This document shows positions 4,690 through 35,578 of a DNA stretch of 36,185 bases, in pieces. The notes under the pieces were generated by a model. That model did not search any database. It was not told where the DNA came from and was given only the letters and a program-made list of their open reading frames with translations. Both the position numbers and the translations under genes were made by a program. Source of the stretch: a virus. The first letter of the stretch is position 1. Every line of letters begins with the position of its first letter. The stretch is taken from UHGV virus genome UHGV-0335474. One strand, written 5' to 3'.

Positions 4690-5115
4690 ATGGCGACTGA
4701 GAAAAAGAAAGGTGGTCGCCCCTCTGATTATATGCCGGAGGTGGCTAATGACATTTGCGCATTGCTTTCCTCTGGTGAGAGTCTGCGCAAAGTTTGCGAA
4801 CGCCCAGGAATGCCGAGCAAAACATCAGTTTTTCGCTGGCTGGCTGAACATCAGGAGTTTCGTGACCAGTACGCGAAGGCAACAGAGACTCGGGCCGACT
4901 CTATTTTCGAAGAGATATTCGAAATTGCTGACGACGTAATCCCTGATGCCGCCGAGGTGGCAAAGGCAAGACTTCGCGTTGATACCCGCAAATGGGCGCT
5001 GGCCAGAATGAATCCCCGTAAGTATGGCGACAAGGTAACTAATGAGCTTGTCGGCAAAGACGGCGGCGCAATCCAGATTGAAACATCACCGATGAGCACT
5101 CTATTCGGAAAATGA
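4690..5115 (+). CDS. Terminase small subunit (Sf6 gp1-like)
   Basis: 141 aa, MATEKKKGGRPSDYMPEVANDICALLSSGESLRKVCERPGMPSKTSVFRWLAEH..., HTH-type terS very similar to Sf6 gp1 as recalled. Confidence 0.85.
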   Translation: MATEKKKGGRPSDYMPEVANDICALLSSGESLRKVCERPGMPSKTSVFRWLAEHQEFRDQYAKATETRADSIFEEIFEIADDVIPDAAEVAKARLRVDTRKWALARMNPRKYGDKVTNELVGKDGGAIQIETSPMSTLFGK

Positions 5116-6527
5116 CCTCGATTAATCCTATCTTTGAACCGTTCATTGAGGCGCATCGCTACAAAGTCGCCAAAGGCGGTCGAGGTAGCGGTAAGTCATG
5201 GGCAATTGCGAGGCTTCTTGTTGAAGCGGCGCGTCGGCAGCCTGTGCGTATTCTTTGCGCTCGTGAGCTGCAAAACAGTATCAGCGATTCGGTAATCAGG
5301 TTGCTTGAAGACACCATCGAGCGTGAAGGGTATTCGGCTGAGTTTGAAATTCAGCGTTCAATGATTCGTCATCTCGGAACGAATGCTGAATTCATGTTCT
5401 ACGGCATCAAAAACAACCCGACGAAGATTAAATCGCTCGAAGGCATTGATATCTGCTGGGTGGAAGAAGCGGAAGCGGTAACAAAGGAATCGTGGGATAT
5501 CCTGATACCAACCATCCGCAAGCCGTTTTCCGAAATATGGGTGAGCTTTAACCCGAAGAACATCCTCGACGATACCTATCAGCGATTCGTCGTAAATCCT
5601 CCTGATGATATTTGTCTGCTGACGGTGAACTACACCGACAACCCGCACTTTCCTGAAGTTCTCCGTCTGGAGATGGAAGAGTGTAAACGCAGAAATCCGA
5701 CACTGTATCGTCACATCTGGCTTGGTGAGCCAGTAAGCGCAAGTGATATGGCAATCATCAAACGTGAATGGCTTGAAGCCGCAACCGATGCGCACAAGAA
5801 ACTCGGATGGAAAGCGAAAGGCGCGGTTGTCTCTGCGCATGACCCGTCAGATACAGGGCCAGATGCTAAAGGTTACGCATCGCGTCACGGTTCGGTGGTT
5901 AAGCGCATTGCCGAAGGCCTGCTGATGGACATCAACGAGGGTGCTGACTGGGCTACTTCGCTGGCGATTGAAGACGGCGCTGACCACTACCTGTGGGATG
6001 GCGATGGTGTCGGTGCCGGGCTACGCAGACAGACAACGGAAGCGTTCTCCGGTAAGAAAATCACCGCCACGATGTTCAAGGGCAGCGAATCGCCATTCGA
6101 TGAAGATGCGCCTTATCAGGCCGGGGCATGGGCTGATGAAGTCGTGCAGGGCGACAACGTTCGCACTATTGGCGATGTGTTCCGCAATAAGCGAGCGCAA
6201 TTCTATTACGCGCTGGCTGACAGGCTGTATCTGACATATCGGGCGGTTGTTTACGGTGAGTATGCAGACCCCGACGACATGCTGAGTTTCGACAAAGAAG
6301 CGATAGGCGAGAAGATGCTGGAGAAGCTGTTTGCAGAACTGACGCAGATTCAGCGCAAATTCAATAACAACGGGAAGCTGGAGCTTATGACTAAGGTCGA
6401 AATGAAGCAGAAGCTCGGTATTCCATCTCCTAACCTGGCTGATGCACTGATGATGTGTATGCATTGCCCGGAGTCGGCTGCGCAACCAGACTATTCCAGT
6501 TACTCAATTCCTTGTGGTGTAGGTTGA
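5112..6527 (+). CDS. Terminase large subunit
   Basis: 471 aa; Walker A GGRGSGKS near the N-terminus, nuclease-type C-terminus. ATGA overlap with terS. Confidence 0.9.
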   Translation: MTSINPIFEPFIEAHRYKVAKGGRGSGKSWAIARLLVEAARRQPVRILCARELQNSISDSVIRLLEDTIEREGYSAEFEIQRSMIRHLGTNAEFMFYGIKNNPTKIKSLEGIDICWVEEAEAVTKESWDILIPTIRKPFSEIWVSFNPKNILDDTYQRFVVNPPDDICLLTVNYTDNPHFPEVLRLEMEECKRRNPTLYRHIWLGEPVSASDMAIIKREWLEAATDAHKKLGWKAKGAVVSAHDPSDTGPDAKGYASRHGSVVKRIAEGLLMDINEGADWATSLAIEDGADHYLWDGDGVGAGLRRQTTEAFSGKKITATMFKGSESPFDEDAPYQAGAWADEVVQGDNVRTIGDVFRNKRAQFYYALADRLYLTYRAVVYGEYADPDDMLSFDKEAIGEKMLEKLFAELTQIQRKFNNNGKLELMTKVEMKQKLGIPSPNLADALMMCMHCPESAAQPDYSSYSIPCGVG

Positions 6528-11674: not shown

Positions 11675-13093
11675 ATGCCGATTCAGCAACTTCCGCTTAT
11701 GAAAGGTGTCGGCAAAGACTTTCGAAACGCCGACTATATCGACTATCTGCCAGTGAATATGCTGGCTACGCCCAAAGAAATACTCAACAGCAGCGGATAT
11801 CTTCGCTCATTCCCGGGCATTGCCAAACGTTCTGATGTGAACGGCGTATCGCGGGGCGTCGAGTACAACATGGCGCAGAATGCTGTTTATCGCGTGTGTG
11901 GTGGCAAGCTCTACAAAGGCGAAAGCGAAGTAGGTGACGTCGCCGGAAGTGGTCGCGTATCAATGGCGCATGGTAGGACATCTCAGGCTGTAGGCGTTAA
12001 TGGTCAACTGGTCGAGTATCGCTATGATGGCACGGTTAAAACCGTCTCAAACTGGCCTACTGACAGCGGATTCACACAGTACGAGTTAGGTTCGGTTCGC
12101 GACATTACGCGCTTACGTGGGCGTTATGCGTGGTCAAAAGACGGAACTGATTCATGGTTTATCACTGACCTTGAAGACGAATCGCATCCTGACCGTTACA
12201 GTGCACAATATCGCGCAGAATCGCAGCCGGACGGCATCATCGGCATCGGAACATGGCGAGACTTCATCGTATGCTTTGGTTCATCAACGATTGAATATTT
12301 CTCCCTGACTGGTGCAACCACCGTTGGTGCTGCTTTGTATGTCGCACAGCCATCGCTGATGGTGCAGAAAGGCATTGCCGGGACTTACTGCAAAACGCCG
12401 TTTGCTGATTCGTATGCGTTCATCAGCAATCCGGCAACGGGTGCGCCGTCTGTGTATATCATCGGCTCTGGTCAGGTGTCACCAATTGCCAGCGCGAGCA
12501 TTGAGAAAATCCTCCGCTCCTACACTGCTGATGAACTGGCTGATGGCGTGATGGAATCGTTGCGCTTTGATGCTCATGAGTTGCTGATTATCCACCTTCC
12601 ACGCCATGTTCTCGTGTACGACGCATCTTCAAGTGCCAATGGTCCGCAATGGTGTGTACTGAAAACAGGCTTGTATGACGATGTGTACCGCGCTATCGAC
12701 TTCATTTACGAAGGCAATCAGATAACGTGCGGAGATAAGCTGGAATCGGTTATCGGCAAATTGCAGTTCGATATCAGCAGCCAGTATGGGCTACAGCAAG
12801 AACATATTTTATTTTCACCATTAATAAAGGCAGATAATGTCATTATTAATGACCTTGAATTAGAAACATCAGGCGGCGTGTGTGATAGAATAGATAAAAT
12901 ATTTATATCAGCAACAACAGATGGAATAAATTACGGCAGGGAACAAATGGTCGTATTGCAATCTCCATTTGTATATGACAATCGAGTCTTATGGCGCAGG
13001 ATTGGAAGAGTTAGACGTCTCATCGGTTTTAAATTCAGAGTTATTGCAAAAGGCCCGGTTACATTATCCGGACTGTCTATTCGTACAACATAA
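11675..13093 (+). CDS. Tail accessory / head completion protein (P22 gp10-like)
   Basis: 472 aa, same length and position as P22 gp10 / Sf6 gp8. The last ~300 nt are AT-rich. Confidence 0.65.
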   Translation: MPIQQLPLMKGVGKDFRNADYIDYLPVNMLATPKEILNSSGYLRSFPGIAKRSDVNGVSRGVEYNMAQNAVYRVCGGKLYKGESEVGDVAGSGRVSMAHGRTSQAVGVNGQLVEYRYDGTVKTVSNWPTDSGFTQYELGSVRDITRLRGRYAWSKDGTDSWFITDLEDESHPDRYSAQYRAESQPDGIIGIGTWRDFIVCFGSSTIEYFSLTGATTVGAALYVAQPSLMVQKGIAGTYCKTPFADSYAFISNPATGAPSVYIIGSGQVSPIASASIEKILRSYTADELADGVMESLRFDAHELLIIHLPRHVLVYDASSSANGPQWCVLKTGLYDDVYRAIDFIYEGNQITCGDKLESVIGKLQFDISSQYGLQQEHILFSPLIKADNVIINDLELETSGGVCDRIDKIFISATTDGINYGREQMVVLQSPFVYDNRVLWRRIGRVRRLIGFKFRVIAKGPVTLSGLSIRTT

Positions 13094-13114
13094 ATCGAAA
13101 CTTAAGGAGTAGAT

Positions 13115-13660
13115 ATGTTAAGTGAAGATATTAGAGATGTAGTTGGTTATGAGGGGCTTTATGCGGTAACTCGTGATGGTAGAGTTTACTCTCACTCAAG
13201 GATAATAAATACATGCCATGGGGCTACTCGATTAATGAAGGGTAGATGGCTGAAGCCAGCAAAGGATGGGGGCGGATATCTATTTGTTGGTCTCTGTAAG
13301 GATGGAGAGGTTAAACCAAAAAAAATACATCGAATTGTTGCTGAGGCATTTATTGAAAACAAAGAATCTAAACCATTCATCAACCATATAGATAATAATA
13401 ATCAAAATAATAATGTAGAAAATCTTGAATGGTGTACGCAACATGAAAACATGCAGCATTGCTCTAGAAGCGGTAGGGTGAAAATACCTCATTATGTGGG
13501 TTCTGAACATCCATCGTCCAAATTAAATGAAGATATAGTTCTGGTCATAAAAAATGATTTGATTACGCCAATTAGCGAGTTAGCTGCAAGATATAATGTG
13601 ACTGTTCAGGCCATACACGCCATTAAAAAAGGGAAGACATGGAGGCATGTGAATGGCTGA
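13115..13660 (+). CDS. HNH homing endonuclease (NUMOD4 + HNH_3 type)
   Basis: 181 aa, [14 protein letters not shown] (NUMOD4-like) and [24 protein letters not shown] (HNH). Markedly AT-rich; AGGAG SD upstream. Confidence 0.8.
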
Positions 13661-14354
13661 TCCCAATCTCAACGTGCCAGTAACTATCCAGGCCACCCGG
13701 CTAGACACATCAATCCTGCCGCGAAATATCTTCTCGCAGTCGTACCTGCTGTACGTTATCGCTCAGGGTACCGATGCCAGTAACGTGGCTAACAAGGCAA
13801 ATCAGGCTGGTCAGGGCGCTTACGATGCTCAGGTGAAAAACGATGAACAGGACGTCGAACTGGCTGATCACGACGCAAGAATCACCGCAAACACAAAAGC
13901 GATAAATCTCCTTGAGGTCAGGTTAACAACCGCCGAAGGGAAGATAGTCGTACTGCGTAGCGATGTTGATTACTTGCTGGATGAGGTTATCGATATTCAG
14001 GCGCATCTGGTCACTGTTGACCAAAGACTGGATGACGTAGAAAACGATGTCTCTGGCATTAAGAGTGATTACGTATCGAAAACCGTAACCGAATTGCAGT
14101 CTCTTGAGTCACCGCTGGATGTAAAAACATCATATTCAGTTGATGGAATTCAGGTTGTTGGAGCAAGAAATACCGGATGGACTGCAGCCACAGGTACGCC
14201 ACTTCTTGGCTCATTCAACGCTAACCAGTCATACACGGTCGGCACTACGTACACACAATCCGAAGTCGCAGCTCTCGCTACAGGTTTGCAGCAGGCGCGG
14301 CAGCGTATTCTGGCGCTTGAAACAGCACTTAGATTACATGGGCTGATTGACTGA
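13653..14354 (+). CDS. Tail needle protein (P22 gp26-like)
   Basis: 233 aa, [25 protein letters not shown]... with heptad coiled-coil and a C-terminus matching P22 gp26 as recalled. Confidence 0.85.
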
Positions 14355-14809
14355 TGATTACATTCAAACCAACGCGAAACATCGACCTGATAGAAGCCGT
14401 GGGAAATCACCCCGACATTATCGCTGGTAGCAACAACGGTGATGGATACGACTACAAGCCTGAATGCCGTTACTTTGAGGTTAACGTGCACGGTCAGTTT
14501 GGCGGCATTGTTTACTATCAGGAGATTCAGCCGCTTACATTCGATTGCCACGCCATGTACCTGCCAGAGGTTCGTGGATTCAGCAAGGAAATCGGGCTGG
14601 CGTTCTGGCGATACATTCTGACTAACACCACCGTTCAGTGCGTCACATCGTTCGCTGCACGCAAATTCCGCCACGGGCAGATGTACTGCGCAATGATTGG
14701 CCTTAAGCGTGTCGGAACCATCAAGAAATACTTCAAGGGCGTGGATGACGTGACGTTTTACAGCGCCACACGTGAAGAACTAATCGACTTCCTGAATCAC
14801 GGGAGATAG
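14354..14809 (+). CDS. P22 gp14-like virion/ejection-associated protein
   Basis: 151 aa, gene-order equivalent of P22 gene 14; ATGA overlap with the needle gene. Confidence 0.5.
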   Translation: MITFKPTRNIDLIEAVGNHPDIIAGSNNGDGYDYKPECRYFEVNVHGQFGGIVYYQEIQPLTFDCHAMYLPEVRGFSKEIGLAFWRYILTNTTVQCVTSFAARKFRHGQMYCAMIGLKRVGTIKKYFKGVDDVTFYSATREELIDFLNHGR

Positions 14810-20652: not shown

Positions 20653-21189
20653 TCAAACAACCCACCAGTTTGCCTGATTGGATACCAGCCTTGCAGTTTT
20701 TATGGAATTAATTATGCCATGCTCAAGAGCCTTGTTAGCATCCAAAATGGTCGAGTCTGCTATCAGGGATGCCCACCTAATATGGGTTCCGATGTCGATA
20801 TTGAACGTCTCAACGAAGCGATCAAGATCGTTATCGAGGCATTTCCCGTACTCTCTCAATCTGGCATGGTCGGCGGCTGGGGAGGCAAAGCACCATAATA
20901 GAGGATGTAACAGGAATCTTGATAATGGGTTTGCGAAACGTTCTGAGCCAGCCAGGAAAACGATATTAGCTATGGATTCAACATTGCTTATGTTGTGAGT
21001 TCTAACGGTAACAGGGAGTGACTTAAGAAAGTTATACGCAGTAAAGCCAGCGGCAGTTTCCCCTCCCTGACTTGATATATGGATATTTAATTCAGTTGCG
21101 CCTTGAGATAATGCGGTGAGACAGTGGTTCTGAAGTTGCCCAACAGTGGCAGTGTTAACGGGGCATAAGAAATGAATTGTGTGCAGCAT
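20653..21189 (-). CDS. ClpP-like serine peptidase (S14-family fold)
   Basis: 178 aa; aligns by eye to the ClpP core (ISSQGG vs INSPGG, Ser in NVESIAN vs GQAASMG, His in RFLLHPL vs RVMIHQP). Start overlaps the mnt stop (TAATG). Confidence 0.65.
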   Translation of the reverse strand: MLHTIHFLCPVNTATVGQLQNHCLTALSQGATELNIHISSQGGETAAGFTAYNFLKSLPVTVRTHNISNVESIANIVFLAGSERFANPLSRFLLHPLLWCFASPAADHARLREYGKCLDNDLDRFVETFNIDIGTHIRWASLIADSTILDANKALEHGIINSIKTARLVSNQANWWVV

Positions 21190-34064: not shown

Positions 34065-34132
34065 CGTAGATTCATATTCGAATCGTTGTATATTCACCGC
34101 CCTGGTGAGTAGTGCGTCCTGCTGATGTGTTT

Positions 34133-34195
34133 AGTATCACCGCCAGTGGTATTTATGTCAACACCGCCAGAGATAATTTATCACCGCAGATGGTT
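34133..34195 (-). promoter_or_regulatory. Lambda-type OL1-OL2-OL3 operators with pL promoter
   Basis: TATCACCGCCAGTGGTA (34135-51), CAACACCGCCAGAGATA (34159-75), TATCACCGCAGATGGTT (34179-95); minus-strand -35 TTGACA and -10 GATACT. Matches the lambda OL region as I recall it. Confidence 0.85.
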
Positions 34196-34352
34196 ATCTG
34201 TATGTTTTTTATATAGATTTATTTTTTTGCAGGGGTGTGTGGCTTGGGAGGTGATCGAGAGATCTGAATTGCGATGTTTAGTGAGTTGTATCTATTAATT
34301 TTCAAATAAATACAATTGGTTATGTGTTATTGGGTGAAGGGGATCGTGAGGC

Positions 34353-34378
34353 AAAGAAAACCCGGCACTGGGGCCGGG
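34353..34378 (-). terminator. timm-like rho-independent terminator at the end of the cI operon
   Basis: Minus strand reads a CCCGGC...GCCGGG hairpin followed by TTTTCTTTG; homologous to the lambda terminator downstream of rexB. Confidence 0.65.
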
Positions 34379-34387
34379 TTGGTTGAT

Positions 34388-35409
34388 TTATAGTTTAACC
34401 ACCATCCTATCAATGGCTTCTAAGCAAGATTGTTTATATGGGGCATTAACTTTTACCCTTCTGTTCATAACTCGTACACTACCTGTTGGTAGGATCGAAA
34501 ATGGACATCCTTTAGCAAAGGCAACAACACCAGTTGTCTGAAAATCTTTAATATTTACCACTCCCTCTTCAATATTTTCGAAGTCGAAAATTTCAGGGTT
34601 ACTTAGTAATAGTTGCTGAATATCATTATCGATTGATTTTAGAACTGCGGCATAGGCTGATGCAGGCCCCATATACTGTGTAAGACGGTTTTTTGCGATC
34701 ATATGAACTTTGGGTAGTGGTCTGCTCACCGCGGTAAGTTTGTTTGCAAATGCGTAGGATGCATAAATATCAGATGGCAACTTTAATCCATAAATCAAAG
34801 AGAAAGCATTTTGAATGGCGCGACGAGAGGAATCATCAGCCATAACTGGCAAGATGAGCTTTTCTACAGCAGCTAATGCTATTTGAGTATAAATTGAAAA
34901 ACTAGGATTACAGTCAATAAATAAAACATCGTACTCATCATTTAGATCTTTAATAAGATCATTAATCCAATCAATGATGCTTACCCATGCATTTGTTCCT
35001 GGAATCTGCTGATTAGCAAGAGTGTTGATGGCGTTTGCTTGAAGCTCAAGAAGCGGGTCACCGCATACCAACGATATATTGGCTGGAATATGTTCGTTGA
35101 ATTTTTTTGGGTGTGTCAAATAATCGTGGGCATCAACAATGGGTTTTTGATAAGGCGTCGGGAGGCGCATTTGGAAGTAGCCACCCAAAGTACATCTATT
35201 ATTTATATCATGCCTAGTCAATAAGTTTATGCTTCCATTACCTATTAACCCCCCAAGAAAAAGCTCTGACAAGTTTGCCTGTGGGCACACATCAATAACC
35301 AACACGCGCTCAAGCGGGTGAATTTCTGCATATCTGCAAATAGCTTGAAATGACAGGCTTGTTTTCCCTGTTCCTCCCTTGTTGTTCCATATAGCATATT
35401 TCTTCATCA
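34388..35409 (-). CDS. ParA/MinD-superfamily ATPase with C-terminal extension, in the rexAB slot
   Basis: Deviant Walker A KGGTGKT, A' motif VLVIDVCPQAN, Walker B YDVLFIDCNPS. Start at MMKK (ATG 35409 or 35406) after an AGGAG SD; the track ORF from 35482 is an upstream extension. Confidence 0.7.
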
Positions 35410-35578
35410 TAAACTCCTGGTTAACGATGTCATTGCTGGTTAATGTTTTACCATTGGTAAAGTGGTGCACCAAGAGTGACACGGTAAACCAAATAGATCA
35501 AGACTTATGGTAAACGATTTACCAGTGGTGACATCGATAACCGAAAAAGACTGCATTTCTGCAGCCTGTTTCACACAA

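Follow-up and report, generated by a model that had tools for sequence, protein, structure and literature searches.

An AT-rich island between genes 10 and 26

The DNA analysed here, virus genome UHGV-0335474 (36,185 nt; hereafter the window), comprises most of the genome of a P22-like phage (Lederbergvirus) of the CUS-3/HK620 type, and carries in its late operon an AT-rich island that contains the gene for a free-standing HNH endonuclease. The best genome matches were CUS-3, phiv205-1 and E212, at 94-96% identity across the virion module. The island lies between gene 10, specifying the tail hub/packaged-DNA stabilisation protein gp10, and gene 26, specifying the tail needle gp26. The complete gp10 open reading frame (ORF; 11675-13093, + strand) was recognised by the Pfam family Phage_stabilise (P22 gp10; E = 1.8e-281), and gp26 (13653-14354, + strand) by its 93.7% nucleotide identity with HK620 gene 26; an earlier, sequence-only reading of this DNA had given both flanking genes the same names. 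Codons 1-375 of gp10 (11675-12799, + strand; the 'head') are the resident part, with homology to HK620 gene 10, a GC content of 0.51 and a GC content at third codon positions (GC3) of 0.53. The cassette that follows consists of an AT-rich stretch replacing the final 97 gp10 codons, a 21-nt leader with a ribosome-binding site, and a free-standing gene of the I-HmuI-like NUMOD4-HNH-helix-turn-helix type. The replaced part of gp10 (codons 376-472 plus the stop codon; 12800-13093, + strand; the 'tail') is a foreign allele with a GC content of 0.36 and a GC3 of 0.25. The leader (13094-13114, + strand) bears the Shine-Dalgarno (SD) sequence AAGGAG at 13104-13109, and the HNH gene itself (13115-13660, + strand) encodes 181 amino acids (aa).

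The GC content of positions 12780-13660 was 0.373, against 0.510 in the upstream part of gp10 (11675-12779), 0.494 in gp26 and 0.468 in the whole window. The 800-bp segment with the lowest GC content of the entire 36 kb begins at 12801 (0.361; mean 0.467, standard deviation 0.038), and GC3 was 0.30 in the HNH gene against 0.41-0.63 in the other late genes. These measurements bear out the sharp fall in GC content described in the sequence-only reading, which begins inside the 3′-end of gp10, continues through the HNH gene and recovers at gp26. The left boundary proposed at that time, 12780, was accurate to ∼20 nt; taken together, composition and homology place the break within gp10 further to the right, at 12794-12805. 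The right edge of the island falls at the start of gp26 (13653-13693).

The HNH gene has its own translation signals, with AAGGAG situated 5 nt before its ATG. The SD sequence of gp26 (GGAGG, 13641-13645) lies inside the 3′-end of the HNH gene, and the gp26 ATG overlaps the HNH stop codon by 8 nt; the gp10 and gp26 ORFs are both intact around the insert. Since no promoter or terminator of its own was predicted on the + strand of the island (the counts were below those of shuffled sequence), the HNH gene is probably expressed as a member of the late operon. No Rfam match was obtained within 12400-14000 at E values up to 1; no group I intron or other RNA element was thus detected, and the gene, embedded in neither intron nor intein, appears to be free-standing. 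A transposon-like insertion was also rejected: there were no flanking direct repeats, and the sole inverted repeat was an imperfect 14-nt one at 12819-12851. This repeat, at the start of the AT-rich tail, has 14-nt arms and a 5-nt spacer (CATTAATAAAGGCA / TGTCATTATTAATG), and adjoins the stretch best conserved among divergent carriers of the cassette (82-84% identity over 12819-12953); it may be a chance product of AT-rich DNA.

The HNH protein and its gene

The HNH protein is already held in RefSeq, as 'HNH endonuclease' or 'NUMOD4 domain-containing protein', the window form being identical to WP_042048397.1. It was matched by PHROG 59 (HNH endonuclease; E = 2.9e-52) and by two Pfam families: NUMOD4 at residues 7-60 (13133-13294; E = 2.6e-8, 34.4 bits against a cut-off of 23.4) and HNH_3 at residues 70-114 (13322-13456; E = 9.4e-9, 35.2 bits against a cut-off of 24.8). 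Both scores exceed the curated cut-offs, in agreement with the NUMOD4-like and HNH motifs recognised by eye in the sequence-only reading. A C-terminal three-helix domain follows (∼13529-13654); in the homologue from Escherichia phage HZ41, a weak match to HTH_3 was found at residues 144-174. The AlphaFold model of the protein (predicted local distance difference test score, 90.5) has β strands within residues 6-70 and helices within residues 139-180. The only solved structure matched significantly was that of I-HmuI (PDB 1U3E), both in sequence (E = 5e-12) and in fold (E = 1.6e-8, with 182 aligned columns over the full length).

Residues H91, N103 and N112 of the window protein align with H75, N87 and N96 of I-HmuI, and N90 occupies the position of I-HmuI D74. 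Since an alignment of 55 homologues showed no variation at N90, H91, N103, E105 or W106 (N112 is conserved in at least 90%), the catalytic core is intact when judged against its own family. The sequence-only reading had considered that the ORF might lack catalytic HNH residues on careful alignment; they are present. The gene shows the marks of purifying selection, with 0.09-0.15 non-synonymous differences per site (pN) against 0.70-0.77 synonymous differences per site (pS), and a ratio of the corresponding substitution rates (dN/dS) of ∼0.05. Among the 31 carrier contigs described below are 30 complete copies of the gene, of which 29 were intact and one was split by an insertion sequence (IS) element; the 31st copy is lost at the end of its contig.

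The foreign gp10 tail and its linkage to the HNH gene

Phage HK620 provides the empty site: the stop codon of its gene 10 overlaps the start of gene 26 (TAATG), with no DNA in between. Alignment with insertion-free phages, as proposed in the sequence-only reading, showed that HK620 lacks the insert and that the flanks are 92-94% identical. Along this alignment, the nucleotide identity between the window and HK620 was 92-100% up to ∼12745, 50-65% from 12775 to the gp10 stop codon, and 83-100% in gp26. For codons 1-368 of gp10, identity was 99.5% at the aa level, 94.5% at the nucleotide level and 84.5% at third positions, the GC3 being 0.53 in the window and 0.54 in HK620. For codons 369-472, the corresponding values were 63.5%, 55% and 22%, with a GC3 of 0.27 in the window and 0.59 in HK620; no indels were seen in this part. 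The comparison indicates that the 3′-end of gp10 has been replaced by that of a distant homologue, with a composition like that of the HNH gene. The sequence-only reading had also allowed for relatives having the same gene at this position with a matching composition; what was found is that carriers are AT-rich there, against a GC-richer background.

The tail was 87% identical in nucleotides to that of HZ41, and 76-82% identical to those of carriers with gp10 heads 64-72% identical to that of the window. No native donor with a complete gp10 of the AT-rich type was found when the tail was compared by tblastn with 50,697 phage records, nor in a set of 5.8 billion proteins (which gave short partial proteins only), nor in a set with one genome per species, metagenome contigs and IMG/VR. 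The tails met in these searches were either at least 87% identical, and then always accompanied by an HNH gene, or at most 70% identical; there were no intermediates.

The insert is polymorphic in its presence at one defined site. Among 5426 complete E. coli genomes, ∼916 had a P22-like gp10-gp26 junction, and in 858 at least 80% of the length of the HK620-type junction was matched. In ∼840 E. coli P22-like prophages gp10 abuts gp26, with no insert. The AT-rich tail was present in 56 E. coli genomes, in four with the HNH type of the window and in 52 with that of HZ41. An HNH gene followed the AT-rich tail in all 47 of the E. coli matches listed, although in three of them it was separated or disrupted by an IS element. 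Two of the three were inspected: in E. coli M160133, an IS1 lies ∼12 nt into the HNH coding sequence (L005, 2842-3539), the frame being re-annotated downstream of the IS, and in ETEC6333, an IS3 lies inside the HNH gene (L006, 2878-4106). The third strain, ETEC6334, gave the same truncated match. These IS cases were the only disrupted HNH copies among the E. coli carriers inspected.

The same linkage was seen when the tail peptide was used to retrieve metagenome and viral contigs, 160 in number. Their tail identities were bimodal, being either at least 87% or at most 68%. An insert preceded gene 26 in 30 of the 30 scorable AT-rich tails and in none of the 129 standard tails (Fisher P = 9e-34, the contigs not all being independent). 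Twenty-nine of the inserts measured 0.45-0.7 kb and one, split by an IS element, was larger; the 31st contig ends too early to be scored. In all 31 AT-rich-tail contigs the leader had the form ATCGAAAC..GGAG..ATG, the sequence ATCGAAAC..GGAGTAGATATG being kept throughout. An AT-rich tail without an HNH gene was not seen in any of the inspected E. coli matches or scorable contigs. A partial Salmonella gp10 carried the same tail at 98% identity; the cassette therefore extends beyond E. coli.

Three deeply diverged NUMOD4-HNH gene bodies were found at the gp10-gp26 junction, all behind this same tail: type A (that of the window), type B (that of HZ41) and type C (177 aa), which are 45-58% identical to one another.

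An identity island shared by otherwise different phages

Over the 861 bp from 12800 to 13660, the window showed 0-1 differences from each of five other genomes, namely two IMG/VR contigs (L014 and L015) and three E. coli prophages (L022, L023 and L024). The HNH protein of all three prophages is WP_042048397.1. For the same five genomes, divergence from the window amounted to 3.9-6.8% in the gp10 head and to 1.4-42% in gp26 (Poisson P from 1e-15 to 1e-26). The mean pairwise difference among seven genomes was 8% in the last 50-nt bin before 12794, 0-1% at 12794-13693, and 12-25% beyond. The block identical among carriers therefore includes the first 41 nt of gp26 (13653-13693), and 12800-13693 (+ strand) can be taken as the minimal cassette that has recently been transferred. 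The evidence from pairwise-difference profiles concerns type A; the profiles of types B and C were blurred by the ungapped comparison of members with indels.

The two edges of the island behave differently. The left edge fell at 12773-12805 in all the identity-island genomes, the switch in L015 lying between 12799 and 12805, and at least five head haplotypes were present within 60 nt of it. The right edges were scattered at 13694, 13703, 13865 and 14022. A conserved block acting as a recombination hotspot to the left of the edge was considered and rejected: between-lineage nucleotide identity was 60-69% at 12746-12790, the head average being 68%. With conservation there no stronger than usual, the position of the edge is not explained by a sequence hotspot. 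In more distant P22-like carriers (L008/L016, L009/L017 and L011), identity to the window was 64-72% for the head, 76-82% for the tail and 72-78% for the HNH gene; their gp26 types differ, and the identity of their tails to cassette-free ones is only 55-62%. The sequence-only reading had proposed the horizontal insertion of an HNH gene together with a co-converted stretch of gp10. The insertion and the accompanying gp10 piece are supported by these data, since genomes with flanks 4-42% apart are identical at positions 12800-13693 and the foreign tail is always linked. The co-transferred stretch, however, is not a variable tract but a fixed block, whose left edge was the same in all the lineages examined.

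Other HNH genes around gene 10

Phage HZ41 and ∼52 E. coli prophages, in which the gene is named 'NUMOD4 domain-containing protein', match the window in position, leader, AT-rich tail (87% at the nucleotide and 91% at the aa level) and length of the HNH protein (181 aa), although that protein is only 56% identical to that of the window. The HNH genes have a pS of 0.79 (saturated), against 0.39 for the adjoining tails; the body of the enzyme gene has therefore been exchanged without the tail. The comparison of a type B with a type C cassette (L026, 2816-3358, and L027, 2816-3346) pointed the same way. Their tails were 98% identical in nucleotides and their leaders identical, whereas the proteins, of 181 and 177 aa, shared only 52% identity; at the nucleotide level the match fell off ∼60 nt into the gene and returned ∼15 nt before the stop codon. 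With its ends conserved and its middle diverged, the gene body is thus exchanged as a module.

The junction between genes 10 and 26 also hosts an unrelated endonuclease gene. In phage vB_EcoP-683R2, an HNH_3+AP2 gene unrelated to types A-C lies there (L004, 2932-3426; ON470594.1, 32056-32550; Pfam E = 4e-16, PHROG 99 E = 4e-70), behind a standard HK620-like tail. It was found at 99.6% identity or more in 16 E. coli genomes, and its annotation as 'endolysin' should be corrected to HNH-AP2 endonuclease. The last ∼18 nt of this gene repeat the 3′-end of HK620 gp10 (AGGATTGAGTAATGGCT).

At the other end of gene 10, between gp4 and gp10, a NUMOD4-HNH gene 46% identical to that of the window is present in Salmonella phage UPF_BP1 (L003, 1501-2300) and in E. 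coli LD39-1 (L007, 2392-3118). The leader sequence ATCGAAAC..GGAGTAGATATG also precedes this gene. At this site the resident first 31 codons of gp10 persist upstream as a dead, truncated stub; the cassette supplies a diverged copy of codons 1-31 (MAIQQLPLMKGLGKSAVNADYIDQ...), which is joined to the remainder of gp10 and overlaps the 3′-end of the HNH gene. The recoded gp10 start at this site mirrors the recoded gp10 tail in the window. Three metagenome or viral contigs (L029, L116 and L117) have homing endonuclease genes at both ends of the essential gp10 gene, an upstream one of the UPF_BP1 type and a downstream one of type B or C; each contig has the leader motif at positions 844 and 2816. 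The first 48 residues of the HNH protein of the gp4-gp10 site and of the type B protein are identical at 44 of 48 positions (L003, 1643-1786, against L026, 2816-2959), while the remainder is far more diverged, which suggests that the N-terminal NUMOD4 module has been shuffled between the endonucleases of the two sites.

Other features of the window

Downstream of gp26 lies gene 14 (14354-14809). The gene for the large terminase subunit, assigned by its position, is the ORF at 5112-6527, ∼6.6 kb upstream of the HNH gene. The window further encodes a P22-type tailspike head-binding domain, an antirepressor and an integrase. Its second-lowest GC stretch, at 34100-34800 in the early region (0.375-0.40), overlaps an ORF of 364 aa for a ParA/MinD-like ATPase (34388-35482, - strand; Pfam AAA_31, E = 1.3e-16). 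An ORF of 178 aa with a CLP_protease match (20653-21189, - strand; Pfam E = 2.2e-11) is placed between the ejection-protein genes and the antirepressor gene, on the opposite strand.

Discussion

The island between genes 10 and 26 is probably a mobile homing-endonuclease cassette that settled in the late operon of a P22-like phage together with a co-transferred piece of gp10. The sequences themselves show the make-up of the cassette, its presence or absence at one site, the foreign descent of the tail, the recent arrival of an identical block in different backgrounds, and an enzyme under purifying selection that retains its catalytic residues; the cutting, its target and the protection of carriers are inferred. 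The steps envisaged are as follows. When a carrier and a cassette-free genome meet in the same cell, the HNH enzyme would nick or cut the cassette-free allele in or beside the 3′-part of gene 10, and the repair of that allele would copy the sequence of the carrier. The block 12800-13693 would be inherited as a whole, because a tail only 55% identical to the resident one would give no crossover separating it from the HNH gene. The recoded tail, the disrupted gp10-gp26 junction, or both, may protect the carrier from cleavage by its own enzyme.

Several points weigh against this interpretation. Cleavage by the HNH protein, be it a nick or a double-strand cut, and its target site are predictions. 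Classical co-conversion leaves tracts with variable ends on both sides, while here the left edge is fixed. The perfect linkage between tail and HNH gene would be expected from the lack of homology alone, and is therefore no proof of an immunity function of the tail. Searches for an AT-rich donor lineage with a matching complete gp10 were negative, and the cassette is rare, being present in ∼6% of E. coli P22-like prophages, with the window HNH type in four of 5426 genomes. General homologous recombination between mosaic temperate phages, moreover, could yield the same island with no nuclease drive.

This last possibility, in which the tail and HNH gene moved as a block by general homologous or illegitimate recombination with the HNH gene as a passive passenger, is considered unlikely. 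P22-like phages are indeed highly mosaic, the gp26 and gp4 types vary among carriers, and the end of usable homology could by itself explain the fixed left edge. A passive passenger, however, would not be expected to remain intact in 29 of 30 complete copies under strong purifying selection, or to keep a full I-HmuI-like architecture with its catalytic residues; nor does it readily account for a block unchanged next to at least five head haplotypes within 60 nt of its edge, or for two further HNH genes at this junction or at the other end of gp10, a distribution that fits nuclease-targeted sites. A role as an accessory of packaging or morphogenesis, like that of the HK97 gp74-type HNH proteins that assist the terminase, is highly improbable. 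The position in the late structural operon and the translational coupling to gp26 would suit such a role, but most close relatives lack the gene, HK620, P22, Sf6 and CUS-3 among them, and it is not beside the terminase or portal genes. The NUMOD4-HNH_3-HTH architecture, with I-HmuI as the sole significant match of known structure, and the interchangeable, diverged HNH variants that fill the same slot also speak against it. Membership of the HK97 gp74 type was rejected, since position, distribution and architecture all differ.

It is harder to set apart the idea that the HNH protein acts mainly as a weapon against cassette-free P22-like phages that co-infect or superinfect the cell, by interference or marker exclusion, so that the carrier phage or lysogen benefits and the element is not purely selfish. 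Strong purifying selection over a long divergence and persistence in prophages would fit this idea, and two reports (PMC11620839, PMC12724721) describe precedents in which intron-encoded or free-standing homing endonucleases take part in phage competition. The molecular steps are nevertheless the same as those of plain homing, so that sequence cannot tell the two apart, and the low frequency of the cassette (again, ∼6% of E. coli P22-like prophages) counts against it. This role is possible, though it seems less likely than not to be the main one.

Returning to the mobile-cassette interpretation, the fixed left and ragged right edges fit a break near 12800 followed by copying to the right; they also fit the trimming of the block by general recombination to the end of homology. 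A more speculative proposal, which we put forward tentatively and regard as rather doubtful, is that the edge pattern marks the point of attack. The enzyme would then be a nickase that nicks cassette-free gp10 near codon 375, ∼315 bp upstream of the HNH gene; copying would proceed rightward, the 294-nt tail would be an obligatory immunity segment, and gene 10 would be a two-ended arena of competing homing endonuclease genes. If this were true, competing homing endonucleases would drive the exchange of domains of gp10, an essential structural protein.

On the mobile-cassette interpretation, the locus would offer a clean natural case, in well-studied temperate phages, in which part of an essential virion protein was brought in from a foreign source by a homing endonuclease. 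The C-terminal 97 residues of gp10 are only ∼63% identical to those of the resident form, yet they are evidently functional. Since the alleles with and without the cassette are both present in culturable phages (HZ41 and HK620, respectively), the system is experimentally tractable. The literature searched contained no description of an HNH gene at the gp10-gp26 junction of P22-like phages, or of the gp10 tail linked to it, although a mention in key comparative papers on P22-like phages is possible.

Comparison with known systems

The closest structural relative, I-HmuI, is the enzyme encoded by the DNA-polymerase intron of Bacillus phage SPO1. It shares with the window protein a NUMOD4 β-sheet N-terminal domain, an HNH ββα-metal motif and a C-terminal helical DNA-binding domain, at an overall identity of ∼26% and with D74 replaced by N90 in the window protein. 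I-HmuI, however, is the product of a gene lying inside a group I intron, while the window gene is free-standing and intergenic. In this respect the cassette resembles the free-standing homing endonuclease genes of phages, which mobilise themselves and flanking DNA (PMC2988022, PMC2790892). SegF, SegG and MobE of T4-like phages, known for intronless homing and localised marker exclusion, likewise occupy polymorphic sites between conserved essential genes, and sequence of the donor's neighbouring gene is co-inherited with them (PMC2988022, PMC2790892). The Seg proteins differ in belonging to the GIY-YIG family, whereas the window enzyme is an HNH protein in a temperate P22-like host phage. Moreover, the genes of the T4-like phages are flanked by a variable tract of near-identical sequence, while the window has a fixed 294-nt block only 55% identical to the resident alleles.

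Further likenesses, at the level of populations, come from the lactococcal Skunavirus HNH genes and from the exchange regions of phage ICP1 bounded by homing endonuclease genes (PMC12724721, PMC10448857). In the former, I-HmuI-like HNH enzymes are described as showing marker exclusion (PMC12724721). The features shared with the P22-like phages are the variable number and position of I-HmuI-like HNH genes beside essential genes, the clustering of these genes by insertion site, the location of homing endonuclease genes at the boundaries of exchanged DNA, and the shuffling of domains between them. The present case differs in the phage lineages and hosts involved, in having sites for homing endonuclease genes at both ends of gp10, and in that the cassette carries a recoded piece of gp10. 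The cassette is best regarded not as a novel type of system, but as an ordinary though clear example of a homing endonuclease that probably moves between related viruses.

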